DNA of 64,000 nt, from the NCBI GenBank assembly GCA_008632985.1, contig QPGO01000030.1, forward strand, positions 433,135-497,134, in the 5' to 3' direction. The notes beneath the pieces are model-generated. The model ran no database searches and was not told the origin of the DNA. It worked only from the letters and a program-made list of their open reading frames with translations. Of the stretch, positions 4,928 through 63,941 are shown piece after piece. This DNA comes from Psammoneis japonica (Eukaryota). The position numbers were made by a program, and so were the translations under genes. How positions within the stretch are numbered: the first letter of the stretch is position 1; every line of letters begins with the position of its first letter.

Positions 4928-5008
4928 CGAGTCGTGACTCGTTCAATCGAATGAGTCAACAGCCACTCAAGACTCGTGACTCGAAGTCACGAGCACGAGC
5001 GCTCGTGC
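4928..5008. repeat. Cluster of short palindromes/hairpins
   Basis: CGAGTC-gt-GACTCG (4928-4941), CTCGTGACT-cga-AGTCACGAG (4973-4993), perfect GCACGAGCGCTCGTGC (4993-5008). Confidence 0.75.
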
Positions 5009-5349
5009 CATTGCGACGACGACAACTCTCTATGTGTGAAGCAGGGACTGCCAGTTAGACTAGCTAGCTAGTGGCTAGAGAGTAGAGGCTACTGCTGTTG
5101 TTTCTATTGCGACTACTACTACTTTTGTTGCTATTGTGACTGCTGCTGCCACTGTTGTAATTGCGCGAGCGCTCATGGGCCATCGCATCCATGATGGCAA
5201 GCTCATTTTGTCGCCGCGCCACATTGATGACTGCTCATTGCAGCTTTTCACAGGCCACACTTTACAAAACAAGAGCCACACACTTTATAAAGAAACTGTG
5301 TGTGTTTTTCTGGTTGACCACAGATCGTAGCATCAACACAATGCTGGTC

Positions 5350-8300
5350 AATTTCGGTTGAGCCAGAGTTGTCGAACAAGCTGCTCATCGCTTCCTTCTG
5401 CTTGGCTGCCCCCGACTCCGACTTTTCATTTTTGAGTCCCGCTGCGGCTGCCAGATTTATCTTGTCTACGGCTCCTTCAGTTTTTAGCCAATTCTTTGTC
5501 AAATCTTTCATGCCACTCTTGGTGAGTTTCCCACTTGAACCTGGTTGGGAAACACAGCCTTGCACACTCGCAGCAAATCGTCTGAATCTTGATTGGCCCA
5601 AAACGTCTGTGTTGCAAGCTCCTTACGACGTGCATTCTGTTCTGCTGATCAAAATCTACCCACTCTTTGTCATTGTCAACCGTCTCCTCTTCTGCGTCAG
5701 CTTTGAAATCGTCCGCGGTCTTGCTGTCCTTCCTTTCGTCGCGAGGCCTTCTCCAAAAGCTTTTTGTTCACGGCTTCTGCCAGAGCCTTCTCCTTTGCCT
5801 TTGTGCTCTCCTTGTTCAGCTTTGTAAGATTGATTGCATCCAGCTGTTCCTTTGTCAAATCTGCGGCCAGCACATCTTCATGGCAGCGATCCATCGAATC
5901 CATCAATTGTTTCCCTGCCATTTTCTGCTCAGCCTCACTCTTCTCGTGTCAAACCCACCCACAGGACGCTTTTCATGCTGTTCTTCAACATTCTTCTTCC
6001 GTTTGGATTGGTTGTCATGCTCTGTGTCCATGATGTGTCTCTGGCATTGATCAATGCTCTCAAATGCTGAAGTGGCTGTCTTGGTCCCAAGACAGTCACG
6101 CAGTGTCCCATGCACCTGCTCAGCAATTCAACCAGTGGATGGCAGCAAACCAAATGCAGAACGGAGAGTTGTAAAAGTTGCAGGGTGAGCCTTCTTGAAG
6201 TCAAGCAGACCACGACTGGAAGGATCCTCTGCACGCCATCTGCTTGATTTCTGAAAAAGCTTCCAACTTGGACAACCCAAGCTGCTGGAAGAAATGCAAG
6301 ACCCCTTCCTTCTCTGCCTCCAACAACTTTGAACAATCCTTTTCCAAGGGCTCATGCTGAGGCAGCTCCGAATCCTGACAAGGAGCTGCAAGCTGTTGGA
6401 GTGTTGGTGAAGTGCACGCAACAATGCCCTGGCAAAGCACGGGCCATGCTCGCCAAGAACAAGCACCAGAAACATGCCAGACCCGCTGAAATGGTGCCGC
6501 GTCATTTTTAGCAATTCCTTGCATCCAGCTTCAACTCCAGTCAGGACCTGCACCCATTTCATTTCTCGAACAGCACTGTCCTCCAATTCTGAGATCAACT
6601 TCACAGTTTTGGGGAACACATTCTTGGGCTTGGCCCATGCTTTTTTCCGAGATGGCAGCTCAAATTTGAAGAAGAAACCGTGTGCCTCCATCATCTGAAA
6701 TCCTGGAATGACTGGTTCAAAAAAATTGGAGCACAACTTGGATGGTCGGCATGCACATCAATTTGGTACAGTGCTCCAGCACCTGCCCTGGACATGACTT
6801 GCCCAAACGCTTGGCCATTTCTTGGCAGAAAATGAGAAAGAAACTCTCGCAACCACAGTCCGTTTTGCACAACAAAAGCAGGTGCTTGCAAACACGTTGG
6901 TTCATGCACCAACGCTGTTGTCATTCCCACACCGGTTTGGGGAGCAACAAAGGGATGTCATGACATTCACAGATTTCTTCCACCGCTGGATCTGCCAATG
7001 ACTTGTGCCCTTTCAGTCCATCACAGAAAGACTGGATTGACCATCAATGGTGGTGATTTTCTTGATGATTGGTTTGGTCAGCATCGCCAAAGGCTGCTGC
7101 AACAGACGCCCACATCACCACAAGATTGGCAACATGAAAAGGATTGCCCCAAACAATCACCCACCGGATGACACCATTGACCCGCCGCTTCAGTTCTGGA
7201 AGCAGAAGCACTGCCTCATTGAAAGTCTTGCAACTCATTTCAAAAGCATTGGGGGCATTGTCTGAACAACCTCCACCACAATGTTCAAAGGCTCCCTCGG
7301 TCCCAAGGCTCTCTTTCAAGGCAGCAATGTTGAGGTCAGAATTTCCGTTGCCATCTGCCAAAACAGCTGCGGAGGTGGCAGCCAGGTTGAACTTTGGCGA
7401 GCCTTCTTCCAACATTCCAGCACAGAGAAGCACACGATGCTTTGTTCCTCCATGATGTTTGGAGTCATCATTGCAAGTGCAACTCAGCACATTGTTTCCA
7501 TGCTCATCCTTCACCATCGTGTTCTTCTTGAAATTGCTCTGGAGATGATGAGTGTCAATCATGTCCAGTCATTTCAGACAGTCTCGAGAAGCAGACTCCG
7601 ACACAAACTCTTCTTCTGCAAGCGGTCTTCCAAGAAAGCAAGGTGCAAGCAAATTCAAGAGCCCATTCATTCTGGATGAAGGCACCTTGTGGCAAATGTG
7701 AACATGACAAAGAACATGCGCCACTGAATCTTTGATGCTCCACACTTTGTTTTTCAATCTTGTGAAGTTTCTCGAAAGCAAACTCTTGGCAGCTTCAAAT
7801 TGTTTGCCGCATTTGTCAAACTGAGCTTGCGCAAAACAGTCAATCAGCAGCTCCTCTTCTTTGGCTTGAACCATTGCTGGCACTGAACGAGCTCGTCTTG
7901 GACTGGTTGCAAGTTTGTCCTTGACGCATTGAGTTTGAAAACACTCGTCATTGTTGCCAACTCGATGGTTTCCGTTGATGGCTGAATGTCCCTTCTCCTG
8001 CACTCTCTCTTCATCACATTTTCTGCATCATTGCTGTCACTGTCAAATGAAAGCAGCACAAGCTCCAATTCTGCAACGCTTGGACATTGCTTGCTCCAGT
8101 TCTTGCAATGCCTTCACTCGCCATGGATCCTCAATCTTTTGCTTCTTGCACGGCGATGGAGTTGCAGTGCCCCCCTCCTCTCCCTCCTTGCCTTCACAAG
8201 CAAGCTTGCTGGGCCCAAATTGCCAACAATGGCGCAAGGTGCATCTGAACTTGGTGGTGCTGTCAAGTTGGATTGCCGCAGAATGGTGCGCACCTTGCTT

Positions 8301-8900
8301 GAAACAGAATCAAGATCAAAAGGCTCATCAAAATGCTCTGCAAAGCTGTTGCAATCTCTGGAAGATCTTTCTCCAAATGCTGAGTTGCTTCTCCAGTCAT
8401 GGGCCTTCTGCCCAAGCCTTCCAGCCAGCCCCGCGTCCAGCTTTAATTGTCACGTCCTTCACTCACATGCCATGAAGTTGGTCACAGATGTTGTTTTGTG
8501 TTTTCATTTCAATGCAACTCTCTCCAAATTGAAAAAACTTTGCTGATTGCATCACAGTCGCTCCGTTGGAAGTCTCAAAAAAGGTTCCCTGGTGCAAAAC
8601 ATCTGCTCTGCACAGGAGAACCCTGGTGCAGTGTCTGTTGCTTGGGTGATGATGGCCCAGAGCTGGTCTTCAGCCGTCTCATCCTTGGTTGCTGCCAGAC
8701 CAATCTCCTTGGCCAAAACTTTCTCATGCCACCACCATTTTGCATTTGCATTTTCAGCCTTTTTGTTGCCACTGGCTTTGATGCAGCAGGTGCCGGAAAT
8801 CCAGCTGGTGGTGGGCGTGTGAAGAGTTGGCATGGGTCATGGCATCATGACAAAGCAAAACAGCATGTTTCAACATTTCTTGCCAAAACATGCCTCTCCG
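5350..8900 (-). pseudogene. Degenerate DDE transposase, hAT-superfamily-like
   Basis: Ordered motifs across broken frames: CNDDSKH (D1), GCSDNAPNA (D2), WGNPFHVANL (CxxH-like), QQRW, FGLLPSTG*IAEQVH (E). Multiple stops and frameshifts; boundaries approximate. Confidence 0.55.
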
Positions 8901-9334
8901 AATGGATGATTGCAACCGTGTGTCAATGAGGGTCAACAGAGCTTCTGCGGCAATGGCCCAAAAATTGATGAATGTTTGGATGCCTTGTCTGCCGCGTCAA
9001 TGTCATCATCAGCTCTGGCAGTTTTTTGACAAGTTCTCTGTGTTGTCACCGTGGTGATGGTCTGTGCGCTCATCCAGAGTGTGCCTGCCATGCCAGTTTG
9101 AAGTTGCTTGAGGCCTGGGTCTCACAGCAGCGTGGCGACGTGAGAACCGCAAAAATTCCAAAATCGCGCAACTGCTGTCCAAGAAATTCTGGGAGAGCCG
9201 CCTCAAATCTGTTGAAACTCGAATGTTTGATGCATTTTCTTTTAATTGATGCACCTGCAAATGACAAAATTTTCACATTGTGCACATTGTTTGCATGCAA
9301 AAAATCTTGTTCATCCATTTTTTTCATTGGATGC

Positions 9335-9960
9335 AGTTTCAACAAAAACTGTTGAAAGTTCAAGTTTCAACAAAAAAACTGTTGATCAACAACTTGACAA
9401 AAGTTTCAACAGATTTTTTGTTGAAACTTTGTGTTTCAACAAAAAAAGCTGAAACTTTGTGCTCAACAGTCGCTGTTGAAACCATCTGACATCACAACTT
9501 AAAAATTCTGATGTCATCCTTTAAACACCTGAAACTTCATGATGTCAACAACAGCTCAGATGAATGTCTGTGCAAAGTGAAGAAAATGTCATCGTGGGAA
9601 ATGACGATGCGGTTTGCATTGGCTCGGCATGGTGAGAGCTGTGGCAGAAGCTGAGAGCAAAAGTGAGAACAAACTCTGAAGCTGCAAAAAACTTTGCTTG
9701 CCTCTCCAGGATGTTTGGCACGGCATCAAGAAACACCGCCCTTGCTTCCAGGTGGGGGGTTTTGTCCACAGCACTCTCTGGCTGCTGCCGGCAGAGGAGG
9801 TGAAACAGTTTCAACAGTTTTTTTTTCTTTTTTTGAAAGTTTTATGTTGAAACTTGAAGTTTCAACAAATCGACAAAAGTTTCAACAGATTTTTTGTTGA
9901 AGCCTCAAGTTTCGACAGATTTTTTGTTGAAACCTCAAGTTTCAACAGTTTTTTGACATC
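9335..9960. repeat. Two inverted blocks of short TGTTGAAAC/GTTTCAACA repeats (transposon subterminal-like)
   Basis: Dense copies at ~9335-9485 and ~9800-9960; rare TTCGACA variants suggest a CpG-containing ancestor. Confidence 0.7.
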
Positions 9961-10469
9961 CTTTGAGTTTTTTAATGTCAGATGATCATGCCCGCATGGA
10001 TGTTTAACATGGCAGGCAATGAGTGGTTTCTCAACAGATGTGCAATGGTCACTCTGCAACTAAAAATGTCCGCTGCACCCAAAATTGCTGCACGTGATCT
10101 GGTGTCTGCAACAGCTCTGGCAACAAGCACCAAAGCAGCTTGCAATGGTGTGTGTGCCTCCAACTGCCAGATGTCGGGCTTTGTGGATGCTTGGCCCAAA
10201 CATTGGCTTGACCATGGCCAGCCAATTTCATGATCGGTGGGCAGAGTGAGTGAGATGCTTGTCAACTGAGTCAAACAACTGAGCTCGATTGCGGGCCAAG
10301 CAATTGTCAGCCTTGGAGCAGATGGCTCGGACCTCTGCCTCAGCATCTGTGCATTGCAAGCAATGGGAATCATTGCGGCTCTCAGAGTCATCATGCAGAA
10401 ATTGTGTGGAAGAGCACCAGAAACAATCATTTTCAGTCTGTGCTCGAATGTCAACTTCTCGGGGGAAAT

Positions 10470-10550
10470 CAATTGAAATGTCATCTGACCAAAGGCATTG
10501 CTCTTCACCATGCAAATCAAAACACCTTTGGTCAGATGACATTTCAATTG
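10470..10550. repeat. Perfect 26-bp inverted repeat with 29-bp spacer (foldback/MITE-like)
   Basis: CAATTGAAATGTCATCTGACCAAAGG (10470-10495) and its exact reverse complement (10525-10550). Confidence 0.85.
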
Positions 10551-12479
10551 AGCTCCCAAAAAGTTGCCAGCTTCAATCACCCTCTCGCATGACATTGTGT
10601 GCATTTCTGCACGATTTGGCATTTTTTCTTGTGCAAAATGCCAATTGTGACTCTTGCAACATTTTTGAATGATTCCCACTGACTTCCTTGTTTTAGAATT
10701 GTGCCCATGCACTGCGCCATTGTGGCCATCCCAAAGTTCCCACCATTGAGACCACACACAACAACTGCCAATTGCAGCGGCCCAGTCTGATTGCTGGTCT
10801 CTGTCTGACACAGAGTGATGCAAGCCAGAAGATGTCTTGTTGGGGGCGGTCAAGAAAGTCTCTTGTGGGGTGCACAAAGACAATGGGGAGAAAGGATGCA
10901 TGAGAAAATGGATGCACACAGGAGGTGAAAGAAAAGGGGGGGTGCGTGCCGTCATGCAAACAGGTGCCATCTTTGCGGGTCCTCCTGATTTTGTGCTTGG
11001 CTTTGGATTGATGCTCTTGTTTGTTGTCATCATCTGGGCAGCCAGCCTTCTGACCACACATTCTGCAATGAAGTGTTGTGAGCTGCTTGCCATGCCTGGC
11101 TTGTGTGCCAGGTTGCTCCTTGGGACAGCACTTCCCAAATTCATGATTCAACATGCAATTGATTTTTTCTTTGCACGCCTCCCAACGGGCAAGGGAATCA
11201 CCTGCCATCATCACAGAGTTCTTTGTGTTGCCAATTTTGTCCTGTGTGAAAAAGCCCTTGATCTCGTCCTCCTGGGATCCCGGGTCATTGGAATTGCACA
11301 CGACAAGAAAGCTGTTGATGAACATGCGCCACTCCTTTTGGGCATTGACACGGCAAAAAATCTGCATGAACCAAAAGTCGATGTCCTTTGGTTTGCACTG
11401 GATGCAACGCACGACAATTTTGGTGACAAAATGAAGGTCATGTGCATGGTCATCAATCAGCTCTTTTAGACTCTTGCACCATAAAAAAAAACAGGCTCGC
11501 CAGAGACTGGATCATTTGGGTTGTTGTGGGTGATGATCGTGTGAACAAATTTTGCTGTGAACAAATTTTGCCATCGCTTGGATGTTGCGGTGAAGTTGTG
11601 TGCAGTGCTCCTCTTCTTTGACTGTCTCTCTGGGTGATTTGGAGAAATGGAGAGCTTCCTCCAAATTTTGACAACAAAGAACATGTTCACCTTTCAGCGT
11701 GCAAGATTTCTTCAGGGACCAACCACAAGTCATGATGTGAGACCAAATGTCAGGGCATCCAAGAGTTTTCTTGACAATGTTGTTGGTGCGGATGACTTCT
11801 GCAACACATGGAATGCAGCGCAACTTTGGCTTGTGGCAAAGGAAGGGAAGAGCAAAGAATTCTGGAGAGGGAGTCCAGCTTGTTGTCTCCAAAAAGTGCT
11901 TTTTGGATGCACATGTTGATGTCATGCTTTTGAGCTTGGGACCAAACAACTCCATTCCAAAACTGTTGGCAAAACATTTTGTGTCATCAAAATCAACTGC
12001 GTTGGGAAATTGGAAGGAAGGGTTGGGGTTGACCTTGTCATGGGACAGGGTAAAGTCATTGACTGCCATGGCAAGAAGTCAGTTGTGATTCACGTAGAAT
12101 GTGTGTGAATCACAGCGCATGGTCAAATGCAGTTTGGGGAGAGGATGTGCTGTCATGAAATGCATGAAAAATTGTTGTGCATGTGGAGTGTGTGTTTGGA
12201 ACCGGGTGGAGAGCCGTGCATGGGTGGAGCTGTTGAAAACAACTGTCAAAGACAACATTTCAAAACAAAGGCAATGTTGTCATCAAATTGCAGCGCATTG
12301 AAATGAAGAAAAGGATGCACACAAATTGATTGCCAAAAATGAATCAAAACAAACAGGTGACAAGCATCCACACAAAAGGCATCTGACAAAGGCACTGTGT
12401 TGTTCACTTTTGCATGCAAAAATCCAAATTAATGGAGGAACATGCATGACATCAATTTGCATGAATCAGACAAAGAGAA

Positions 12480-14013
12480 GTGAGCACCACTGTGTTGCGG
12501 CCTCTGGTGATGTGGCAGGTCCAGTTTGGTTGACTGGCATTGGCCATCATTCAGGATGCATCATTGTCCTTGCAGATGAGGGTGGCTTGCATCTGTGGTG
12601 CAGACAGTTCATCAAGAATGGAGCAAAGGTGCAAAGCCATCTTACCTGCATCCAACGCAGAGACAAATTCTGCTTCCAAGGATGACATGGACACCATGGT
12701 TGCACACGAATCTTCCATGCTGTGGTGGCACCGGTGAGTGGGAAGGCAATGCCAGCAATGGACCAATGGTGATGGATGTCGGCAGCCCCCAGTCAGAGTC
12801 CTTGCAGCCAGTGAGCTCTGTTGGAGATGCCGCATGAGGAGGTTGGGGTGACAGGTGGAGCGGAGGTGCAAACGGAAGAGATTTGTTGGAGCAGGGTCAC
12901 CAGCATGCTGGGTCAAAGTCCAGGTGACAATGGGTGCACCGCAGCACATCCTTGACACCTTCACAGAGGATGGAGCCAGGGTTGGAGCTGAGTTGACTCA
13001 GCTTGGCAATTGAATGACTCAGGTCAACTCTGGTGGTGACCATGGGCCCACATGAGTTTGCTGCTGGCTTTGCGGCAGGGGAAGCCATGCTGGTTTTGAA
13101 GTTGGTGGGATTTGGCTTTGTTGGCAGGGGGGTGGGGGCCTTGTCAAGAGTCTTGCTGTGGGAGGAGTTGCCAGGCATGGGGAGGGTTGGAGTTCACAGG
13201 GGTTCATCCAGCACATCAAAAAAGGGGCAGTTCTTCAGAATCTTTGAGGTGTGAGGTGCTGTGAAGGCAGATGCAGTCTTGGGTCTGCTCAACATCACAA
13301 CCAAGGAACAGAGTGAGCAAACCTTGACATTTGATCTTGCCTCCAGTCAGGTTGTCGTCCACAATGTCGCAGGCAATGTTGTGCATTGCATTGCCATTGG
13401 CAGCTGTTGCAAAATCGTCCACCTGTCAAAGGAATGGCACTTCTTTGCCATTGATCGCACCACTGCAGATCCACGGTTCATGGTCAGTGGATGCAAGGCT
13501 GAGTTCAGCGCAGATGATGCGGTTGATGTGCTTGTTCCACAGGTGGGGAGACTCAGGGTGTCCTTGGAAAGCCTTGAGAACTGGGAGCACATGCCCTTCA
13601 GGGGGACAGGAGGGCAGCAGAGATGGCTTGTCCACCAATTTTGGAACACCTTGTCAACACACATGTGGAAGCACTGTTTCGGTGGCAGAGATTTGGCAAA
13701 AAAGCATCACTCACATCTGTGCCATGCACACACTTGTTCTTCAAAGCTGCCAAAGCAAAAAGCAAGCACACACAAAACCAAAACCCATGTGGAACCACTC
13801 TGCCGGAGCCAGATCTGTGTCATCCACCACAGGGCCCACAGGTGCCTGTTTGGGCTTGGCATTGCTGCACACTTGGCAGAAGCAATGTGGGTGCAAAAAG
13901 GCCTGGAGAGCAGCAGGGAGGCCTTCAGCGTGGCGTTGCAGATGTGCAAGTTGATGCATGCTGGGGTGACCAAGATGGTGGTGCCACAGTTCACTGGTGG
14001 CCACACGTTGCAT
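12480..14013 (-). mobile_element. Ty1/copia (CoDi-like) pol remnant: GAG-pre-integrase, RT, RNase H; internally deleted
   Basis: ELWHHHLGHP..FCQVC, FHMGFGF; RT ALAA..HGTDVSDAF, KAFQGHPESPHLW, QVDDF, TRVDLSHSIAKLSQ; RNase H SSLEAEF..GKMALHLCSILDEL..ICKDN. Confidence 0.88.
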
Positions 14014-14274
14014 GGACCTCAGAGCAGGGTCCAGGGCATCTGCAGGGGGTGAAGGGTCAGGTGATGGCTCCAGCTGTGGCAGCAGGGCCGTGTCGGCAGG
14101 ATGGGCCTAGGAGGTGTGATCCAGAATGTCAAAAGAATGGCCACGGTTGCGTGACATGGGGCATGCTTCACAAGGGTGCGAAAAGTGCCCTGGAGTTCTG
14201 TGGCATCCATGGTCAAGGGAACATTGGGGCGGAAGTGCAGCACAAACCAGAGGCCATTTGCACTTGGTTGGCAA

Positions 14275-15160
14275 CATGCCACACCAGAAAAGTTGTGGAC
14301 ATCTTTCCTTGCAACCTGTCAGAAAGTTGAGGACAGCACATCAGAAAAGTTGTGGACAACCCATTGGAAAAGTTGTGGGCAGCACAGCAGAGAAGAGGTG
14401 CAGACAACTCATCAGAAAAGCTGCAAGCAGCACACCAGCAAAGTTGTCAACAACATGCCAAAAAGTTGTGCCAGGAAAAGTTGCAGGCATCTTTTCTTGT
14501 AAATTGTCAGAAGTTGTGTGCAGCACCTCAGAAAAGTTGTGAACAACCCATTGGAAAAGTTGAACACAACACACCAGAAAAGCTGCAGATGACTTTTCTT
14601 GCAACCCATCAAAACAAAAGCCAGGCACTGGGCAGTGGTGGATTTTGATCCTTGGATGTGGAACAATGCATGTCACAAGCCCAACAATTGTGGGCAACTT
14701 TTCTTGCAACTTGCCAGAGAAGCTGTGGACAGCACACCAAAAATGTTGTGGACATCTTTCCTTGCAACCTGTCAGAAAGTTGAGGACAACACATCAGAAA
14801 AGTTGCGGATGACCCGCTGGAAAAGTTGTGGGCAGCACATCAAAAAAGTTGCAAACAACCCATCAGAAAAGCTGCAAGCAGCACACCAGCAAAGTTGCCA
14901 ACAACATGCCAGAAAAGTTGTGCCAGGAAAAAGCTGTGGACAATCCATTGGAAAAGTTGTGGGCAGCACATCAGAGAAGTTGCAAACAACCCGTCAGAAA
15001 AGCTGCAAGCAGCACACCAGCAAAGTTGCCAACAACATGCCAGAAAAGTTGTGCCTGGAAAAGTTGCAGACATTTTTTCTTGCAAACTGTCAGAAAAGTT
15101 TTGGACAACACCTCAGAAAAGTTGTGGACAACCCATCAGAAAAATTGACAACAACACACC
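14275..15160. repeat. Complex tandem array built on AGAAAAGTTGTG/GGAAAAGTTGTG units with higher-order duplications
   Basis: Dozens of GAAAAG(T/C)TG cores; blocks at ~14280-14510, ~14735-14930 and ~14930-15140 are mutually similar. Confidence 0.85.
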
Positions 15161-15179
15161 AGGCATTGCATGTGAAACA

Positions 15180-15690
15180 AAGGGTGTCACAAGTCGGGCA
15201 ATTCTCCATCATGCAAGATGCACAACACAGCCCCTTGTGTCAATGCCTGTGCAACTGGGGGGCCAACCTGCCACCCACCAAAACATTTGCTGCCAACAAC
15301 GTCAAGGATTGAGAGATTGTTTCTGTGATCATGCACAAACATTGGTGTGTTGGGCACATGTCAAGAAGGCTCAATGCAACCAGGACAGCAAGAAAGCCTG
15401 CCTGAACAACTTGCACAACAAGTTCTTGGGCCCAGATGATGTTGACAACATGGCTGATGCAGCTGAAAGGTGCTCAGCAGGTCTTTCCTGTCACAGCAGA
15501 CATCAAGACAGGAGCTTTGAGTGGCCAATCCATGTTCATGTTGAGCAGCACTCTGTCATTGATGGCCTCAAGGAGTGTGGCCATGCTGGAATTGACAAAT
15601 GCTCCAAGGTGCACCACCTGCTGGAGAGAATCAAGGATGCGTCCCTTGTGTGTGCAACTTCTTCCAACGTATTTTCACAACAGATTTGAG
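15180..15690 (+). mobile_element. Copia (CoDi-like) gag remnant
   Basis: WAHVKKAQ..DSKKACL..HNKFLGPDDVDNMA..FEWPIHVHVEQHSVIDGLKECGHAGIDKCSKVHHLL resembles diatom copia gag with Tyr replaced by Cys/His (recalled family pattern). Confidence 0.7.
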
Positions 15691-16747
15691 GTGACTCCCT
15701 GTCCTCCAGTGTGTCCCTGCTGCACAGCGGACCTTCTGCAATCAAAGAGGGAGTCAAGAGTCCACTGAATTGACAGAAGATGATGTTCTTTGGACAGCTT
15801 GCAGTCAAGTCCAGAGCCATCCCATTGTGGAGAAAAGCAGGGATTTGAGAAAGCAATGATGCGCAGTTCCATGCAGGTTGCCTCTCTGTGGAGCCCAGAG
15901 CAGTTTTTTCTGTGTGCAGCCACCTCGCACAGCTCTGTGGGGTGCTCCTCACTTGGCTGTGGGTCAAGCTGTGCCAGTGTGTTTGGAAGTTGAACAGAGA
16001 ACTCACTTGGCTGGAAAAGAACTTTCACAGCTTGTCCACCAAAGCTTTCGTGCATTGACTTGACTGCTTTGCATGACTTCATTTGGCATGCCGCTGCACT
16101 GCTTGATGTGCAGAGCTGGCCCTTTTGCTGCAACTGTGCCCTCTCCCCCCACCCCAACAAACAGTGGGAAATCCATCAAAGATGGCTTGCCAAACTGTCA
16201 TTTGGGTGCTGTTGCAGCTCAGTCCATTGCCCAAAGTGATGCCGCAGAGACTCGTCGTGAAAGCTTCTCACGACAGAGAAACAACCACAGCTCTTGCTTG
16301 CCCAGCAAGTCAGGCAGAGTTGTCATCAAAGGACAACTCATTGGACTCATGCACACTGGTCTTGCTCCAACTGAAGCTTGTTGGTTCACTTGGGTGCTGC
16401 GCCTGTTTCCAAAGATGCCCAAAACTCCAGATTTTTGGCGGCACACATCATTTGACATCATCATTGCTTTCATTGACCCCAAAAATGGTTGCTTTTTGGA
16501 ACATTTTCTTTGTTCATTTGAAGCAAAGGCAATTGTGCAATTGCTGCAGTGCAATGATGCAAGTCATTCAAGCGAGCAACCAGGTTCTCAGTGGCCTGTT
16601 CCAGCCCCAGGTGATGAGAAATCCATCAAGCAAGAGGCCAATTTTCAGTGCAGTTTGGCGCATCAAACTCCTTCAAATTTGATCTTTTTTTTGTGTGCAC
16701 TCACCTTTTGATTTGGAAAAAACCCGATTTTGAAGCAGTTCATTGCG

Positions 16748-17430
16748 CCAAATGTGAAAATGGCCAGTGATGGGAATCGAACCTGTGCGCATCACCTGGA
16801 GCTGGAACAGGCCCCCAGTGAGAACAACCTCGCGGTCATTGTGGGAAACCACAACCAGATTCATGGTGCAAATTGCACAGCTGATGGGAGCTGCAATGCT
16901 CTGACTGGTTCAAATGCCATTGCCAATGGGAGCTGCAATGCTCTGACTGGCGCCGCCCAATGCTGTTGCCCGTGGGCACTGCAGTGTTCGATCTCATTGG
17001 CATCAATGCCTCTGCTGCAACTGCACATGGTGGCCAGCTTCCCCCAGCTCAAGTGCCTGACATTGGCAAAGCCACAAGCTCACATGCTTTCCACACTTTG
17101 ACTTTCATCATGGTGTCCAAGTGAACAATCTTGAGGATGGGATTCCTGTTGCCGAGCTCATCAAGGGGGGGGCATCCGCTGAAGAGCTGGAGCATGGCCA
17201 AGTGCTGCCAGATGACACGAGTGGGGTCAGATGTTCCATCTGCTGTGAGAGGTGCCCCAACTGCATTGCTTGGCCTTGCATGCTGCACAAGGGTTTTTGC
17301 ACACAATGCCTCCGGCTTTTGAGCTGTGGCCCAAGTGGAAGTGAAGCCAAGCGCACCAGCCAAGTCCAGTGCCCGCTCTGCAGCACAAACGTGTGCTCCA
17401 TTGATCGCATCTTTGAGCAGGCTGACTCAG
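16748..17430 (+). pseudogene. Degenerate gene with Asn/Gly beta-solenoid-like repeats and a C-terminal RING-HC finger
   Basis: GNHNQIHGANCTADGSCNALTGSNAIANGSCNALTG, then in another frame CSICCERCPNCIAWPC..HKGFCTQC...CPLCSTNVCSIDRIF. Confidence 0.6.
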
Positions 17431-17451
17431 ACCCCACGAAGTCATTTCATG

Positions 17452-17770
17452 CAAGAGGTCAATCTTTGGAAGATGACCATGTGCTGTCTTGTTTCCATGC
17501 GAGAGGTCAATCTTTGCAAGATGATCACCTGCGATGGAAAGCTCGAGACTCTCGGGTTTCTGTGGAAACACGACTCATTCTCCACCTCATTTCTGTGTGA
17601 GAGGTCAATCTTTGCAAGATGATCATCTGCAATGGAGAGCTTGGCTCAGATTTCTAAAGGCTTGGCTCACTGTGCGAGAGGTCAATCTTTGCAAGATGAT
17701 CATCTGTGATGGCAAGCTCAACTCAGATTTCCAGAGGCACGAGTCAATCTTTGCAAGATGATCATCTGCG
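17452..17770. repeat. Five copies of a ~30-bp repeat (GAGAGGTCAATCTTTGCAAGATGATCATCTG) with related variable spacers
   Basis: Copies near 17453, 17500, 17599, 17676 and 17741; most spacers share ATGG.AAGCT...CTCAGATTTC-like sequence. Confidence 0.85.
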
Positions 17771-18210
17771 ACAGAAAGATTGACTTGCATTTCTACAAGC
17801 ACGTTGTTGTGTCGACCAATGCAGCAACGATTTTGCAGATGTCTCGTTTTGTTTCTCTTGCATCTTGCCTTGCTTGCTCACTCTAGCCCTGCATTGTTTC
17901 CACCCGCCGTCATCAGTCATCGCTGTCCGGTCGTTTTTTGGCGCGCCCTGAGCTGAATCACGCACTGTCCACGCACACAGGTTGTTGGTTCCTCCTCTCT
18001 TGGGTGGAACTCTCTGCATCAAAGTCTGAAACCGAAAGATTTTGGATTGCCGTGCTCGCTGCCATCAGAAAATAGAGGCGTGACGATTGCTTGCACCAAT
18101 CATTTTGCTGCATTTTTTTTACCTGTCAAGTGAGTTTTGCGCCGGGCGTCCAAATCAATTGTAACATGTGACGGTTGTTTTTTCGAAACAGGGTGCTGCG
18201 GCAAGGGCTG

Positions 18211-18716
18211 AGATGAGCGCGCGGACACAGGAAGTGGTCAGTCCCGCATGCTCGTGACTCAGCACTTTCCTGCGGTGAAAATTGCGCAGAGATCCGAAGA
18301 TGACAAAAACGGTCTGATGACTTCCGCCAACAATGATGTTGGCTGCATGTGACGTACATTCAATGTTCTTTAATGTGTGAATGAACCACTTTGAGCATTG
18401 GATGCAGTTGCTTTGACGAACTTCGCCAAAACAACGCTTGGCACTGCTTTGCGTGCAAAGCTGCGGCACTCCGCACGACTCGTCTTTCGTTCGGAGCACC
18501 TTCCAGTTCATCAAAGTAACTGCGTCTAACGCTTGAAGTGGTTCATTCACATGTTAAAGAACATTGAATGTACATTGCATGCAGTTGACATCATTGTTGG
18601 CGGAAGTTGTCGGACCGTTTTTGTCATCTTCGGATTTCCACGCAATTTTCACTGCAGGAAAGTGCTGAGTCACGAGTGGGCGGGACTGACCACTTCATGT
18701 TTGCGCGCGCTCATCT
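18211..18716. repeat. Foldback element: ~212-bp inverted arms (18211-18422 / 18505-18716) with ~82-bp spacer
   Basis: Arms align without gaps by eye; most mismatches fall in pyrimidine-purine dinucleotides. Confidence 0.88.
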
Positions 18717-18883
18717 AAGCCCTTACGCACTTCTGCACGACCCACGCGACCTGACTAACATGCGTTGGGGCCAGAGCAGTGCGCGGTGCTGGTTGTTTTG
18801 CTTCTGACCGTTCTGTCTTCTGTGAGGTTTCATGAGTTCATCTGTGCATGTTGATGTTGTCTAATTCGAGGTGCGGTGGCTTG

Positions 18884-19097
18884 AGTGAAAGTGCAAGTGT
18901 GCGAAATTTGCGCATTGATGCGGTTGTCTTTGCCAAATGGTTGGCTGCAACTTGCGCCCATTCCATCATTTCTGTCCATGCTCGTTCCGCGGTGGCTCAA
19001 GTGAAAGTCCAAGTGTGTGAAATTTGTGCATTGATGTGGTTGTCTTTGCCAAACAGCCAGTTGCAACTTGCACCCATTCCATCATTTCTGTCCACAC
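18884..19097. repeat. Tandem direct repeat, 117-bp period, 2 copies
   Basis: GTGAAAGT.CAAGTGTG.GAAATTTG.GCATTGATG.GGTTGTCTTTGCCAAA...CCCATTCCATCATTTCTGTCCA at 18884 and 19001. Confidence 0.8.
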
Positions 19098-19772
19098 TTG
19101 TTCCGTAGGATCCTTGCTTGCTCCTTCTCCTGCTCCGTTGCTCCCACTTCTTCCAGCTCCTCCTCAGTGAAAAATCTCCCACCAGTCTGTGGTGGTGCTG
19201 CCGCCCATGCTGCCTTCAGCTCCTCCATGGTTGAATCATCCCTGGGCACGACCGTTGCTTCCACACGATGACCGTCCACTCTCGTGTTGTCTGGCGCAAG
19301 TGCAGATGAGACATCACAATTTCCTGAAGCAAGCTTGAATGCTGCTCTTGCTTCTTCCACCGTAATCTTCTCCCCGCCTTCTTCATTCATTGCTGACCAA
19401 AACAGCTCCGCATCTGTCTGCACCCTTTTCTTGTCCTCTCCAGTTTTCTTTGGCTCGTCTGCCTTCTTTGTTTGTTGTTGCAAATCCATTTTTCTCTGTT
19501 GCTCCATTTTGTGTGACGTTTGCATTCACGCATTCTTGGTTTGTTGGTTGAAATCCATTCGACATTGTGTGACGCATGTGCAGATTTCTGCGCAATGTGC
19601 TGGTCTAATCGAAATTGTCGATTTTACGAAATTGTCACATTTTTACGGTTGGTTTTGCCAAACAGTTGCACAGTGGTTGGGCACCCTGATCTCATGTTTG
19701 CGTGCTGCATTGACACTTCTGCGTGTTGTTGCTGAGAGAAATGCGTGGCGCTTCTCTCCTTCATGAGTCTTG

Positions 19773-20275
19773 TCAAAGGCTTCGTAGCCTTTTGGGACCT
19801 TGCATTTTCGCAGGTCCTTGGTCAGTGGCTTTTCGCATGAACAGCCCTTCTCTGGTCTTTGCTCTGGAGAGCACAACATGCACCCAATTCTGAGTGCAGC
19901 TCCAAGAGTGTACAAACAACTGCGGGACTCCACTCCCTTGCAGTTTGTGCCCTGCAGTGGCACTGTTGATGACAAACGGCAGCTGGGTTGCCTTCAGTTG
20001 GAAAGTGCACCTTTGTTTGTCGCCTTCTTCTAAAGTTGGGTTGGGCTTGGCAATGCAGGCCCTGAAAGCATTTGCCCTTGGCTCAACTGAAAACTTCACG
20101 GGGGTGATGCTTTTGTTGCGGTGTTCCAACACAACATGGTCTGCCTGACTGGCAAGCACAGCAGGAACGCCAATGTTGTTGTCTAAAGTCACTGGTCTTG
20201 GCTCCTGTCCTGGTTTGAGAATGACCTTGTTGACAGTGGCTTGCACTCCGTTTGCTTGACCCTTTGCCACAGCTG
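19773..20275 (-). mobile_element. PIF1-family helicase C-terminal remnant (Helitron-like)
   Basis: GQANG, QLPFVINSATAGHKLQG (motif V) and NWVHVVLSRAKTREGL (motif VI). Confidence 0.8.
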
Positions 20276-20769
20276 TCGTGGTCGCACCACGAGTGGCTCC
20301 TCGTCGCACTGGACACCCTGGGGCCCACGTAGATTCCAGCCGCGCTGCCTTTCTGGAGCTGGCACGCAGTGAAAAAACCAGTGCCTGCACCCCTGCGTTG
20401 CGAAAAGTGGAGCTCGCCCACCTCCACCTCCTTGGGACCTGTGGAGCCAGCGGACTTTTCGAGGCAAAACAATGCAGGTTGAAGTGACGCGGCGCCTCAT
20501 CCAAAAATGCACACTTCTTTGCTTGCTCTCTTCATGAGGCAGACCAGTGCGAGCGACCACCCCGCTTCGAAAGCCTCGACGGCGGTCTTGAACATTTTGT
20601 TGCTCTTCGGCATTGAGTCTGGGATGCCCCTCTCGCCGACTTCCATGCGGCACCTCCACGCCCACTTGTGGTGTTCGCCGTGGGCATTGGCAATGGCTTC
20701 AGGGTCACTGCTGGTGCACCCCAGTTCTCCCAGTGCGGGGAACCAGAGGTCGGGATGATTTTTGCAGCA

Positions 20770-21190
20770 TGCATGCAGACAAAAGGTCATTTTTGTCATG
20801 CCCTTTGTGACATTTAAAGGCTGCAACACGTCGCCGTGATGCATTGACTCTTGTCAGTGGCTGTGTGTTGCACTCCTCCCCATGTGTCACGCGTCCATGC
20901 GGCTCTTTGCTGACGTGCACTGACACTGCACGGTTTTGGTGGAACAGTGTGGGTGCGCATGAAGGAACAAACAGAACTGCACAGAGTTTTGCGCATTCGA
21001 CAGTGACCAACGTTGCTGCAGACAACTCCCACTCAGGGTTTCGAACCCCTGGCCTCCTGCCCAATGGTTGCGATGAACCATTCCGCTGTGAGCTCACAAC
21101 GCAGTGTGCATGCAGACAAAAGGTCATTTTTGTCACGCCCTTTGTGACATTTAAAGGCTGCAACATGTCGCCGTGATACATTGGCTCTTG
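20770..21190. repeat. ~83-bp direct repeat, copies at 20770 and 21107
   Basis: TGCATGCAGACAAAAGGTCATTTTTGTCA.GCCCTTTGTGACATTTAAAGGCTGCAACA.GTCGCCGTGAT.CATTG; copies differ by CG/TG twice and TA/TG once, plus one other transition. Confidence 0.85.
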
Positions 21191-22794
21191 TTGGCAGCTG
21201 CACATTGCAGATTCGACGCATCCTTCATCATGCACATGGCCTCCTGGAAATTTTTGGATTTTTCGTGCCGCCACAACCAGTCCCACAAGTCGAGCGACGG
21301 CTTGCTGGGGTCCGGAAATTGCTTTTCTTCCTCTTTCTCTTCCTCCGTTGCTTTTGTGGCCACTTTGGCCATGGGCTTGGCTGCCTCCTCGCTTTTGCCG
21401 CCGCAAAGAGCCAGGGCCTCCGGTTTCAGGACGGTGGCCTGTCCACCCAACACGTCGATCTTGCAACCAGCCAAAAGGAGCTGCTCGGCGGTGCAGCCCA
21501 GCTGCTCTGCTTCTTTCAAACCACAAATTTGAAAGGTTGGCTCCGGCGGCACGGCTTTCTCCCCATTTTCACTTTGGGACTGTGCCGGCTTCTCCGACAT
21601 CCTTGTGCGTTCGGACTTGACAGACACACACCCTCGGCACTTCCCACGGCGCCGAGTGCAGTCATGGCAACTGCCGCCGCAGTCATGCCTTCGGCGCCCG
21701 TGAGTTCTGCCGCCACTTCCAGAGCTGCTTTGCCAGACAGAACCATGTTCTCCTCCGCCATTCTGACGCCGTGATGACAGAGGTGCGCTGACTGCTGTGT
21801 GCTGTGTTCCAGGCGTTGGCGATCCACATCCTTCTGCGCGCACAAACGCGCGACACTTTGCACCGCACTGAATTCGACGTGCCCAACGATGCCCAACGCA
21901 CCCCACCTGCCGCTCCCGAGTTCCTCAACGGCCTGCCTCCACCACTTGTATGGGGCTACGACTAGCAAAAAATGCAATATGATATAATCATTGACATATA
22001 AAAAACATTGATATGATATATTAATGACGTATATACAAGAATGCTGAATGACTGCATATGACTTTTTGTGTAACATTTGTACTGTTCTACGCACTTAACG
22101 AAGAAAATGCTGAGGCAATACATAGAATGACTCTTCATAAGTACGAATTCAAATGAAGGTCATGCCCACGCCCGCCACGCCATTTAATCAAACATACGAG
22201 CATATATGAAGTATTATTCAAAGACGGAGTTGACAAACGGAGTATCGACGGTTGAATGTGTAACATTAAAAAAACATCTAAATAGTTGAAAAGTATGGAC
22301 TTTTGTGAGACATTTGTATATGTAGCACATGTAAAACCTGCTATTTGTTTTGGCAAAAACCGTTATCGTTAAATAAAGGGGTACATAAAATCCAATACAA
22401 AATGTCTGACCGGTATAACAGGTACGTTTATGCTAGTCGTAGCCTCATAATTGTCGCCGGGACGTGGTGCGTCTGCACCTCTGTGCGTCCGTCTGCACTG
22501 CGCACTGCGGTGCTACAGCGCCCCGCTTTCTTTTCCTTTTCTCTTCTTCTGGCTGGGAGGAACTGCTGGATAGCCTGGGTATAACAAACAACAACACTTC
22601 GCACCTTCGTTATCGTCATTGAAGAAACCACAAAGCACATAAGAGCTCTTAAACGACTTATAATCCATCGGCAATGGTGAAACGAAAAGTTAAAGCCAGT
22701 CTGAAGACTGACAGCATGGAAAAGAAGGCTCCGCCAGTTTTGAAGCTCCCCAAACAATGGCCAATGGCAACTAAACGAGCTTCTTCTTCTCCTC

Positions 22795-43064: not shown

Positions 43065-43363
43065 CTTAGTTGGCGATTCAGGCTTGTGCTTTGTTACGAT
43101 GTTTATGATTGATGATCCATGCCCATGGCGGACAGCAACGAAGAAGTTGAGTGGAACGCGATCATGTAGAATTGTACGGTGGATTTGTACTGCGGGTCGT
43201 ACCGCCAACCCGCACCAGCATCAACATTGTTATTTGAAATGCTGCTCCATCGCTCAGCTTGGCATGCGAGAGGTTGGATGACAGAAACAGCGCTAAGAAC
43301 AAGATGGGCATTGTCAATGACAGAGGTCTACAAAATATGATCGTCGCTGTTGCGATTGCGATT

Positions 43364-46300
43364 GATCGGAAAAGTGAGTTTCAAACTGAGTTTGGAGCTG
43401 TGATCATGATGTGCTCAGTTGTCTTCTGTCTTCCATGACCAAGCTGAGTTGATCGCAACTCTCCCCAAGAACACCAGCCAGCCCACATTCCTGGCTGTCT
43501 GGAATGTTTTTGCAGAGAGTTCCTTCATGAACTGGTCTGCCATTTGTTCAGTGGTGGTGCTGCCAACAGAGGTCCCAGAGACACATCAATCTCCAGAAAG
43601 AAGATCCTTTGCTTCCTTGAAAAACCACCAGTGATGCCACATGCAGAACACCAGCATGCTTGGTTTGTGAAGAGAAGTCCAACATGTGGGCAAATTTGAG
43701 ATGTGCTGCATGACCTCATGCACAACAAATGCTGGCAAGGTGTGGCACAGTCAAAGGGACACTTGTTTGCACCCGCCTTTGGAGGGCGGTGTGTCAAAAG
43801 CCTTGGAGTGGTGGTGTGCAGCGTGGACACAACCGACGTGGTTGTGGTGGCAGCCAAACTGCTCAAAATGTCAGCACACTGATTTTCTTGAGATTTTTGT
43901 GAGCAGTGGCAAGATCTGGAGCATGAACAGCTCAAAGAAGTGTTGCATGTTTGTCTTCCAGCAGAGCAGCAAGTGACACTGCAGCTTGGGCATGCGCAAA
44001 CAATCAGACAAGAAGAACAACCAGCACCCACCAGCCATGGCCCAGTGTTGCAACAAACAAGATTGGGGTTGAGTCTCGGCAATCTTCTGTCCATCAAAAC
44101 ATCCTGCCAAGTCACAGTCAATGCAACAATCAATCGACAGTTGGAAGTCAGCTTCAAAGTGAGGCCTTGGGCAGAAGCAGCCTTGTTGAGGCAGTGAACA
44201 ACAACATGTTTGGCTGCTGAAGCATGAGATGCACAAGCTCCCAGGTGAACAAGAGAATTTTTCATGCAGCTGAGCAGTGCCAGCAATGCCTGGCCAGCTG
44301 CTCGCTGCCAGATGCACTGACATTGCAACAACAGAACAAAAATTGAGTGATTTCTTTGTGATGATTCACCATTGTCTGTGGCATCAGGCAAGGGAGTGGC
44401 TGGCAGAGCAGGGGGCACTGCACTGTGCTCTTCTCCATCTTAGAGTTTCACAGCCCATTTCCAGCCATCAAACCAGGCTGAGTTGGTGAAAAGCAACAGC
44501 TTCTCAATCTTGGCTGCAAAGAAGTTTTTAAGTTCTCTTTCATCATGAAGAAGCTTGAGTGCATTGCCTTGTTTGTGCCAAGAGACCCTCCCCTGGCTTG
44601 CAAGCTGTGCCTTTTCAAGATCATCAGAGCATTCTCCAGCAAAACCAGCCAGAGTTGTCCACACATGGATGATGCACAACATTCCCTTTTTTGAAGCAAA
44701 GACAAGTGCTGACATTGGATGACATGTTCATTTGCACTCTGGCACACCACCAGCTCTTGGCTTTTCACAAGAGAATTTTGGAAATTGCTCCAGATTCTAC
44801 AAAGACACCTTTCAAAAGCTTCAGCACTGCCATGTTCAGCCCTGACTTTGGAGTGAATCCTCTTGTCAGTGGCTGCACACAGACACCTTCTTCTTGACCT
44901 CAGCTTGAGCAAATGCAGCAGCACAGTTGACTTGGCAAAAAAGATGGGCATTTGACCATGATCATTGAAAAACAGGTGTGCACATCTTTCAAAGCAGCCT
45001 GCTTCATGTGTTTTTGCTGAAGATTGCCATGAATGCAGCATTGCACCCTGCACTTTGGAGCCCCGCTTTGGATGGCTCTTGAGTCCAACGCCTGTGTTCA
45101 GAGCAAAACACTCATCTTGGGGGTGCACTTGACCAGCTCCTGCACATGCAGGACCAAAGCTCCAGCTTTGATTTTCATGGCCTCAGCAACCTGCTCAAAG
45201 TCAGGAGCCCTCAGAGCTTGACACAAAAATGGCTTGTTTGAACCCCTGGTCTTCTTGGCAGCAGTGCTGCAAACTCTCAGACAATGATGACACAAGTTCC
45301 ATGTTGACAGATGTTTTTTACAGAGCAGTCCAAGGTGCGCCACCTGCTGGGCTTCTTGACATCCAACTGGTTTGTCTTGAGACTTCAGCAGACTCTTGGA
45401 TGATGATGCACTTCATCAGCAAACTTGGTGGACAAAACCTTGCCCCAAACAGGCCAAACGGACCTTTGTGGCATTGTTTCTTCCCCCAGATTTGAGCTCA
45501 GTGAAGGCCCAAGTGGAGTGGATGCTTGAGGTTCTTAATGTGAGCCTGCTGGTGATCCTGCCATTTTGAATGCAGAATGGAAGTGAGTGCAGTGCAGCTT
45601 GAGGCAAGTCATCTGTGGTTGTGCTGTGGGGGCATGCTCTGAGAGGTGGGTCATCCAAAGGCATTTCTTGAGATGTCTTGAAGAGTGGTCAGAGGAGCAA
45701 TTGCAGCTGGAGAGCAATCCCAGGAGATGGTTGAAAAGTGTGATGGACATCAGCTTTGCACAGAAGTTGATTTTGCTTTTGTTGCATTTCTGGTGGCAGA
45801 GAGTTGACCAAAGATCTTGTGGGTGCACTGTCCAGTCTTGTTTAAAAGGAGTGCAGATCAGCATCTGCTTGAGACACTGAAGTTGTCCCCAGTGACTTTG
45901 GGTGAGTTGCTCCCCAACTTGATGTCAACAACACTGCAATGAAAAGATTGTTGAAAACAACACACAGTGCTGAGGAGAGCAATGCTTCAAGCATGTGAGC
46001 CCAGTTCACAAAAGGAACTTCACTTGAGCGAGTGTTGCTCCAGCTGACAAGCAAGCTGTGCTGAGATTGTGGTGCCATTGAGGCAACTTCTTGCCAGATT
46101 GGAGAATGATGGGGTCAAGGACATGATCTCTGGACATTCTCCCCACATGGTGAACATCCTGCAAGCAATGGCAAGGCATGCTGTGTGGACCCAGTGAAAA
46201 CATCTGTGCAAAGCAGTTGATGATGGAAATTTTGATGCACGCAGCATTGCAGTTGTGTGCACCATGGCATGAGAAACCACCACCGGCTGCTCATGCCTCC

Positions 46301-49300: not shown

Positions 49301-50130
49301 GATTTGTCTCAAATGGGCAAATCAAAGGGAGAGTCAAGGATCATCTGCCCAGCAAGAACCCAGTTGTGTCTCTGTTTGCTGATCAACACAGTTGACCCCA
49401 CCTCATTGGTCTTGACCATTGGAGTTCAGCAGTGCTCACAATGCCGGCTGTGCCCAACATGTTTGCTTCACGAGGTTTTTTTGGCTCTTTTGGTGCAAGG
49501 TTGAGATTGTTGGTTGGCTGGCATTGCCAGCAAGGTGACATGCCAGCTGGAAGCATGGATTTTGTCATGATGTGAAATGTCTGGTGGTGGCACACTCATC
49601 AAGATTTTGGCCAGGGCAGCTCACAATCTCAGTCAGCTGTTCGTGTTTGTTTGCGAAAGACTTTTGACTGAGCACTGCCCTGCTGCTCACAAAGAGTGTC
49701 TCCAATTGCACTTCATGTGAGGCACCAATCTAGCTGGAGTGGACATCCAGTCAAAATGCTGGAAGATGCACGAAGCTTGGCACACACCAGAGCTTGGACT
49801 CTGTTGTGTCTCCTCCTGATCTCTGTGGAGTGTGAAGATGATCGACTTGTGCAGAGAGTGCATCCCAACAGGGCATGTTCCAGCAGGGAAGCCAGATGTT
49901 GGAGTTGAGAGGATGGCAGTGACAGGGCTGGCCCTGCCAACTCCTCTGCATGGTGCGGTGAAGCCTTGAGGCTCAGAAGATTGAAGCAGCAACAACACCA
50001 CATTGGTGAACCACCGCTTGCAACAGCTGGGCCTGGACCAGCTTCGATGCAAAATGAAGCGACATGAACCTGAGAAACATTCTCTCCGCTGCTGCAGCTG
50101 CTAGAGACTTTTGGTTTCTCTTTTCCGATC
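43364..50130. mobile_element. Island 2: ~6.8-kb degenerate, TpA/CpG-depleted insertion with candidate terminal inverted repeats; coding content unidentified
   Basis: GATCGGAAAAG (43364-43374) and CTTTTCCGATC (50120-50130) coincide with the compositional borders; only about a dozen TpA inside. Confidence 0.65.

Positions 50131-60264: not shown

Positions 60265-61442
<1,178 letters not shown>

Positions 61443-61901: not shown

Positions 61902-63941
<2,040 letters not shown>

Follow-up and report, generated by a model that had tools for sequence, protein, structure and literature searches.

What process could have removed almost every TpA step from two parts of a diatom chromosome and left the genes beside them with an ordinary composition? 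The question is raised by a 64,000-nucleotide stretch of Psammoneis japonica (contig QPGO01000030.1 of GenBank assembly GCA_008632985.1, positions 433,135 to 497,134 of the forward strand; hereafter 'the window', meaning the whole stretch at its full length), in which two blocks of DNA saturated with TG and CA (blocks 1 and 2; Table 1) lie near host genes. Block 1 had been picked out by a model that saw the letters and their open reading frames (ORFs) without database searches (the 'sequence-only reading'), while block 2 is additional to the region listed there. The explanation that we argue for, and to which we assign a probability of about 0.8, is that a targeted process of TpA>TpG/CpA transitions has acted on dead repeat and transposon DNA of this chromosome.

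TpA is near-extinct in both blocks, and its loss is offset by TG and CA. When the whole window is scanned in 1-kb steps, the observed/expected ratio (O/E) of TpA is 0.00–0.06 across 6001–18000 and 0.08–0.21 across 18001–22000, and that of TG and CA is 1.5–2.2 where TpA is depleted in block 1; the rest of the window, with its flanking genes, has TpA O/E of 0.35–0.85 and a single exceptional kilobase at 1.34. Only 56 of the 1631 TA steps of the entire window fall within the 16,619 bp of block 1, where 639 would be expected from the TA density of the window outside both blocks (Poisson log10 P = -195), and block 2 holds 13 in 6,765 bp where the same density predicts 260 (Poisson log10 P = -91). 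The longest run without TA spans 1985 bp (15670–17655), and there is none between 12095 and 12430, which encloses the example that the sequence-only reading had given (12121–12300). Its description of block 1, as almost devoid of TpA, saturated with TG and CA and flanked by genes that use TpA normally, is therefore borne out by the counts. CpG decay is present in the blocks as a second component, with CpG O/E of 0.12–0.5 over most of block 1 and 0.05–0.13 in block 2; the sequence-only reading had referred to this kind of decay but not to the depletion itself.

Transitions convert one pyrimidine–purine step into another pyrimidine–purine step, and the sum of the four such steps (TA, CG, TG and CA) is 24.0% in block 1, 23.5% in block 2 and 23.5% outside. 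Block 1 has 0.34% TA, 2.69% CG, 10.81% TG and 10.18% CA, as against 3.84%, 5.88%, 6.83% and 6.94% in the window outside the blocks, so that a TA+CG deficit of 6.69 points stands against a TG+CA excess of 7.22 points; in block 2 (11.61% TG, 11.04% CA) the deficit is 8.89 points and the excess 8.88. With TG and CA at nearly the same level in each block, both strands are equally affected, and the GC content stays constant at 0.49 in the blocks because the TpA and CpG conversions cancel. The sole kilobase of the window with a TpA excess, 40001–41000 (TpA O/E 1.34, ApT 0.38), has a composition opposite to that of the blocks and contains, at 40471–40610, a CTAG-rich repeat of 57 bp that is both tandem and palindromic.

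Table 1. Features of the two TpA-poor blocks, with coordinates in the window.
Feature	Coordinates	Strand	Basis
Block 1, TpA-erased, TG/CA-saturated repeat DNA	5330..21948	no strand	composition; multi-copy in run X1
Block 2, same signature, CpG nearly gone as well	43337..50101	no strand	composition
Internally deleted Ty1/copia retrotransposon remnant	12527..14232	-	tblastn to copia polyproteins
GAG-pre-integrase ORF, used as search seed	13744..14106	-	PF13976
23-bp minisatellite within block 1	14312..15162	no strand	28 anchored units
Foldback (palindromic) element in a sub-zone of still-normal CpG	18203..18724	no strand	arm alignment
ORF whose C-terminus bears a putative, unconfirmed resemblance to the last Pif1/Helitron helicase motifs	19776..20531	-	translation
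Sub-zone with TpA erased and CpG density normal	20800..21948	no strand	per-200-bp counts

The loss of TpA is separate from the loss of CpG. In the sub-zone at the right-hand end of block 1, successive 200-bp intervals contain 1, 2, 0, 0, 0 and 7 TA steps, those last seven lying at or beyond 21949, and the same intervals retain 8–16 CG steps each, with CpG O/E of 0.64–0.82; since TpA has been lost there while CpG is normal, its loss is no by-product of CpG decay, which it outpaces both in this sub-zone and in the arms of the foldback element described below. Nor is it intrinsic to copia elements, because 12 distant copia-bearing metagenome contigs, taken as controls, keep their TpA (O/E 0.57–0.96) at CpG O/E of 0.13–0.70. 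Decay of CpG driven by 5-methylcytosine (5mC) was rejected as the sole cause on these two grounds: such decay is present here and has TG and CA as its products, but it is unable to remove TpA. The TA steps that survive in the blocks (n = 69) are unevenly distributed among contexts, with TAA/TTA accounting for 65, TAC/GTA for 34, TAG/CTA for 32 and TAT/ATA for 7 when both strands are counted, while outside the blocks these contexts occur at 14.8, 23.2, 18.8 and 19.9 per thousand, respectively. ATA/TAT has thus been erased about 12 times more completely than TTA/TAA, a bias not expected if the survivors were back-mutations of TG or CA.

The direction of change can be read from the copia remnant, for which distant copia homologues of normal Tyr content served as the reference for polarity. 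At 119 of the 180 conserved columns (66%) the remnant has the majority residue. All seven conserved Tyr columns, by contrast, have become Cys (TGC in four, TGT in one) or His (CAC in two), whereas Cys or His occurs at 4 of the 152 other conserved columns (those of Y, R, C and H excluded; Fisher p = 7.4e-10). Judged against these homologues, the change ran from Tyr codons (TAY) to Cys (TGY) or His (CAY), and because TAY>TGY and TAY>CAY share one reading frame, five of the former and two of the latter, both strands were affected, in agreement with the Tyr>Cys and Tyr>His changes that had been proposed from the letters. The changes Leu>TCA, Leu>CCA and Val>GCA likewise agree with a loss of TA from TTA, CTA and GTA. 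The CpG component appears in the same alignment, where seven of the eight conserved Arg columns are altered (TGA 2, TGY 2, CAY 2, CAA 1) and the sole Arg codon retained is AGA, which has no CpG. That the blocks merely inherited such a composition, from a TpA-free source or through selection against TpA in the elements, is barely credible. Nothing favours this idea beyond the composition itself, and it has to contend with conserved residues that have been destroyed (Tyr at 7 of 7 columns), with duplicates made in place that differ as TG versus CA, with distant copia elements of normal TpA, and with a copia remnant, a foldback, a minisatellite and block 2 that share the signature yet differ in CpG loss.

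Duplicated copies within the blocks provide a separate record of these changes. Where both copies of an ancestral TA or CG step have been converted, each on its own, TG should face CA at half of these sites, an arrangement that independent single changes rarely produce. In repeats within the blocks, TG faces CA at 44 of the 419 aligned TG/CA steps (outside, 12 of 788), and there are 249 transitions to 107 transversions, as against 565 to 512 outside, counts which overlapping tandem and palindromic alignments inflate without altering the proportions. The two arms of the foldback element can be used as an internal clock: aligned over 220 bp, they are 86.8% identical and differ by 24 transitions and five transversions, and their aligned steps comprise nine CG/CG, six CG opposite TG or CA, two TA/TA, two TA/TG and seven TG/CA. 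A simple two-arm model of these steps gives about 25% CpG loss per arm and predicts about 0.5 TG/CA discordances from CpG; as seven are seen, most of them must come from TpA, which implies that about two-thirds or more of it has been lost per arm. In the minisatellite, CpG has decayed to either product: position 11–12 is TG or CA in the majority of units, and CG in that at 14796. Other copies, found in the sequencing run of the organism itself (run X1), differ from the window mostly by transitions (807 transition places vs 197), and adjacent CA>TG pairs separate the copies at 5321/2, 6464/5 and 6780/1.

The same counts bear on, and disfavour, a candidate of the sequence-only reading, namely that repeat chromatin was repaired by error-prone synthesis of the Pol eta type, which mutates WA motifs. 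Pol eta tends to introduce A>G at such motifs, at TA above all, so that an affinity to the present pattern exists. The signature is nonetheless strictly one of TpA: AA/TT is undepleted (7.87/8.81% in block 1 and 8.23/7.41% in block 2, as against 7.52/7.62% outside), AG/CT is not enriched in the blocks, and transversions are not raised (249:107). We regard this explanation as very improbable.

Run X1 also addresses the copy number of the blocks and the reality of the mutations, with 3790 of its contigs placed on 4001–24000. The summed depth of these contigs is many-fold above the value of 57 found in the unique flank at 10.0–12.7, 16.0–17.3 and 18.0–22.0 kb, from which it follows that large parts of block 1 are multi-copy. 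Contigs with single-copy depths of 45–63 carry the TpA-free sequence themselves, with eight differences in 858 bp at 15765–16622 and three in 518 bp at 17010–17527. Systematic errors of base calling or polishing at modified bases, in a long-read assembly, are therefore an extremely improbable source of the pattern. Such errors are known from methylated repeat DNA, which the blocks probably are, and no library type is recorded for the confirming run; but contigs of that run taken alone, at single-copy k-mer depth, have the same TpA-free sequence, and thousands of diverged TpA-poor copies are found in the run. The mutations moreover look old as well as real, because the copia remnant combines an internal deletion, Arg-derived in-frame TGA stops and a general divergence that leaves it at 66% identity over conserved columns.

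TpA>TpG/CpA hypermutation as such was first demonstrated in 2026, by mutation accumulation in the chlorarachniophyte Bigelowiella natans (Mettrop et al., bioRxiv 10.64898/2026.01.13.699255). According to the main text of that preprint, 231 of 302 mutations fell inside two integrated viral regions, all of them but one (230) were A>G or T>C, which the authors place on TpA, the rate was about 6e-7, or roughly 1000-fold above the genome background, and hypermutation was seen in 11 of 15 lines; the mutations arose in situ in integrated single-copy DNA, and an ADAT2 homologue was offered as the candidate enzyme. The two cases have in common that TpA>TpG and TpA>CpA are the only changes described for the TpA process and that both strands are affected. 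In B. natans the process does not extend from foreign or selfish DNA into the neighbouring host genome, and the same may hold here, where the host genes near the blocks are normal. By the thresholds given in the preprint, 21 of the 64 1-kb windows analysed here qualify, in runs of 12, 2 and 7.

The two cases differ in several respects. The host is a member of the Rhizaria there and of the Stramenopila here; the targets are giant-virus and virophage DNA there, a copia remnant and unidentified repeats here; and Rho is 0.45 in the viral region as reported, as against 0.00–0.06, a near-total depletion, in the affected DNA here. A strong CpG loss accompanies the TpA loss in P. japonica, and the main text of the preprint mentions neither CpG nor diatoms or stramenopiles. 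The rate was measured in B. natans, whereas the diatom signature is known from sequence alone. By analogy, DNA editing of this kind seems to take place in P. japonica too, as a second lineage, and, as far as we have found, this is the first sighting of TpA hypermutation in a diatom, in a far more complete form. The sequence-only reading knew of no description in diatoms. The belief that nothing similar had been described no longer holds in general, given the preprint, and it stands for diatoms as far as full-text literature searches reach, which returned no report of the process in this group and did not extend to any genome paper on the species.

Fungal repeat-induced point mutation (RIP) is the other obvious comparison, since it too produces localized, near-saturating, dinucleotide-specific transitions with sharp limits in repeats and selfish DNA, and is read as a genome defence. 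RIP, however, turns CpA into TpA and lowers GC, whereas here the direction is reversed and GC is unchanged. The usual indices are correspondingly inverted: TpA/ApT is 0.064 in block 1 and 0.040 in block 2 as against 0.689 outside, and (CpA+TpG)/(ApC+GpT) is 1.90 and 2.05 as against 1.16. RIP also creates stop codons, while the process seen here removes TAA and TAG. In view of the reversed indices and of a GC content that has not fallen, RIP, which requires a TpA excess and low GC, was rejected as the cause. APOBEC3 and ADAR enzymes resemble the present case in being sources of deaminase-type, context-dependent hypermutation of selfish nucleic acids, but they act on single-stranded cDNA or double-stranded RNA with strand-biased G>A or A>G changes, whereas here both strands are equally affected and duplicates made in place have diverged after their duplication.

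These differences extend to the view that the elements were edited before integration, either by ADAR-like editing of double-stranded RNA followed by reverse transcription or by deamination of single-stranded cDNA or rolling-circle DNA, so that they arrived already mutated. Three of the four block borders (21948/21949, 43336/43337 and 50101/50102) are sharp within a few bases, as would be expected if the element alone had been exposed, and ADARs favour a 5' U, as stated in the Discussion of the B. natans preprint. Intermediates, however, are normally edited with a strand bias, and in the blocks the two strands are about equal, with Tyr>Cys and Tyr>His in one copia frame; the non-coding foldback arms and the minisatellite acquired their TG/CA discordances after duplication in place; a saturation of about 98–99% requires many rounds; and the mutations reported for B. 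natans arise after integration. We therefore consider editing before integration quite improbable.

Several observations weigh against our interpretation, or at least restrict it. The excess of TG and CA is a mixture of TpA- and CpG-derived products, and the polarity of change rests on distant homologues, two to three for each Tyr column, with no unmutated copy of the same family among them. Derivation from a transposable element (TE) can be demonstrated for no more than about 1.7 kb out of 23.4 kb, the remainder having no protein identity. The left border of block 1 is graded, at about 5200–6200, and not sharp like the other three. At 6767/6768, one of the rare surviving TA steps in block 1, a run X1 contig of single-copy depth has CG, a difference that one TpA-specific step cannot yield and that is thus not accounted for. 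Run X1, finally, has no recorded library type, possibly derives from the same sample as the assembly and does not represent an independent strain. Against these stand the balance of losses and gains, the changes at seven of seven Tyr columns, the discordance of duplicates, the loss of TpA where CpG is intact and the inverted RIP indices, on which the core of the sequence-only reading, a TpA-specific A:T>G:C process on both strands that is distinct from 5mC decay and RIP, is upheld. The process is TpA-specific, strand-symmetric and limited to the blocks, and was followed or accompanied by CpG decay.

As to how the targeted TpA process might operate, the blocks would have been driven nearly to completion, after insertion, by context-specific transitions in which the A of TpA on either strand becomes G, so that TA turns into TG or CA, with ordinary CpG decay superposed and ending likewise in TG or CA. 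An enzyme with an intrinsic preference for 5'-T-A may act repeatedly on silenced chromosomal selfish DNA, deaminating the adenine of TpA to leave an inosine that would be copied as G. The tRNA substrate of TadA and ADAT2 is A34, which follows the conserved U33, and an enzyme of this type therefore has a built-in preference for U/T-A; the most likely candidate, in which our confidence is somewhat less than even, is accordingly a DNA-acting adenine deaminase of the TadA/ADAT2 kind.

The same targeting of TpA could instead involve its thymine, modified by an enzyme, for instance to 5-hydroxymethyluracil or a base J-like derivative, so that it miscodes as C, with no deamination of adenine. TpA is palindromic, so that A>G on one strand equals T>C on the other and sequence cannot tell them apart, and the context bias of the survivors, with ATA/TAT most depleted and TTA/TAA least, suits either target base. 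Thymine modifications that prefer TpA exist in other protists, for example 5-hydroxymethyluracil in dinoflagellates and base J in the telomere repeats of kinetoplastids. Such thymines normally still pair with A, however, and strong miscoding by them is not established, which leaves this variant unlikely in our view.

Under adenine deamination in TpA, the elements would lose all their Tyr codons, including those for the catalytic Tyr of reverse transcriptases (YxDD), HUH nucleases and tyrosine recombinases, and TATA and AATAAA-type signals would be destroyed together with TAA and TAG stops. Missense changes and lost signals would then be what kills the elements, rather than new stops, which the process, unlike RIP, would be unable to create. 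It is conceivable, on a still more speculative footing than the choice of enzyme, that diatoms carry an active system which edits the adenine of TpA in the double-stranded DNA of chromosomal transposons and which is mechanistically the same as that of Bigelowiella, whether shared across SAR (stramenopiles, alveolates and Rhizaria) or of two separate origins. A natural DNA adenine deaminase would then be at work, faster than CpG decay, and the elements would die from the erasure of all their Tyr codons and TA-containing signals.

If the diatom does share the B. natans signature, at saturation, the process is peculiar neither to one species nor to integrated viruses and reaches retrotransposon DNA, and diatoms with and without TpA-free repeats could be compared for genes of deaminases or base-modifying enzymes. 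Diatoms are genetically tractable, so candidate genes would be open to knockout, and a natural A-to-G DNA enzyme with a TpA rule would be of interest for the biology of genome defence and for base editing. There is also a practical consequence for annotation. With TAA and TAG gone from the blocks, TGA is left as the only, or nearly the only, stop, and all six frames contain long ORFs of up to 389 amino acids (aa); a block 2 frame of 736 codons (46423–48630) holds three stops. These are false ORFs that result from the loss of TAA and TAG, and gene callers would predict from both blocks orphan proteins free of Tyr and rich in Cys, His, Trp and Gln. No homologues were found by searches with the longest ORF (389 aa, 9981–11147) or with the 736-codon read-through, and neither the latter search nor the Pfam scan of ORFs of at least 90 aa gave a protein identity for block 2.

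What the block DNA consists of is clear for the copia remnant, which is the sole part verified as TE DNA. The Pfam scan covered 122 of 128 ORFs of at least 90 aa, the six omitted all lying outside block 2, and 142 of 195 ORFs of 50–89 aa, those omitted being 52 from block 2 and one that starts before block 1. Its sole TE-related match was gag_pre-integrs (PF13976; E 2.3e-6, 27.7 bits), just under the cut-off of 28.4; no further TE-related Pfam domain was found, and weak sub-threshold matches to SURF2, Period_C, HEAT_ATR and LbR_Ice_bind were taken as noise. With the pre-integrase ORF as query, phmmer returned 79 homologues at E<=1e-3 (best 4.7e-16), and the Tyr content of all 79 is ordinary (0.7–8.4%). 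When these proteins were compared with the window by tblastn, two full copia polyproteins (P0151, of 1274 aa, and P0158, of 1524 aa) matched 13995–13765 with residues ~154–230 and 13602–12527 with residues ~844–1205 (grouped E 1.3e-48). A gag/pre-integrase part is thus fused to the C-terminal part of a reverse transcriptase with RNase H, the integrase core and most of the reverse transcriptase being absent, and it is from these two matching segments with a gap between them that we identify an internally deleted Ty1/copia element. A close copia copy was sought among metagenome contigs with a single-ORF query, which matched the 12 distant copia loci and no close one.

The sequence-only reading had named hAT-like and PIF1/Helitron-like remnants besides copia, and of these three classes copia alone was recovered, through PF13976, the 79 homologues and tblastn, the other two being reproduced by no tool. 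Helicase, Rep and hAT dimerization domains were absent from the 122 longer and 142 shorter ORFs scanned. For the putative Pif1/Helitron ORF, phmmer against PDB gave no match at E<=10, Pfam at E<=10 a single weak and unrelated one, tblastn against phages and NCBIfam none, and AlphaFold2 a model with a mean pLDDT of 33.6, which is unusable. When the window was compared with itself, blocks 1 and 2 proved to share no homology, and a pair of long terminal repeats was not seen. Beyond the sharp borders, the normal host genes, the one copia remnant and the multi-copy nature of block 1, most of the 23.4 kb is without an identifiable origin.

Two further kinds of repeat in block 1 deserve mention. A segment of about 453 bp at 20757–21210 is skipped by other run X1 copies (joints 20756>21210/21212) and is flanked by a 91-bp direct repeat (21101–21191 vs 20764–20854, 93.4%); its bin has by far the highest summed depth in run X1 (62003). 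The segment could fit a short interspersed element (SINE)-like element, and contains a stretch that we take, by eye, to resemble a tRNA T-arm; ARAGORN called no tRNA. Two hairpins of about 90 bp, at 9349–9442 and 10463–10557, are the sole Rfam matches, with five matches to miRNA precursor models far below the gathering scores, and are probably foldbacks resembling miniature inverted-repeat transposable elements (MITEs).

The genes that flank the blocks are mostly long uninterrupted frames, and include a TPI–GAPDH pair, a second GAPDH, splicing factor 1 (SF1), an SNF2 helicase and Pex2/12. The best named homologues of SF1 are all from diatoms (Bacillariaceae sp., Nitzschia, Cylindrotheca, Amphora, Pseudo-nitzschia, Mayamaea and Epithemia), at 60–72% identity, which by itself assigns the window to a pennate diatom and not to Bigelowiella. 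A TPI ORF (62054–62896, plus strand) is followed by a GAPDH ORF (62862–63938, plus strand), which together look like a TPI–GAPDH fusion gene with a small frame break at 62862–62896, and an inverted GAPDH paralogue lies upstream (60268–61284, minus strand; 62982–63928 vs 61224–60275, 86.5% identical). At 30692–38749, on the minus strand, an uninterrupted ORF of 2685 aa has matches to WD40, EF-hand and RanBP zinc-finger domains, and contains a 2.1-kb internal tandem duplication (34522–36618 vs 32662–34785, 93.5%) as well as shorter repeats.

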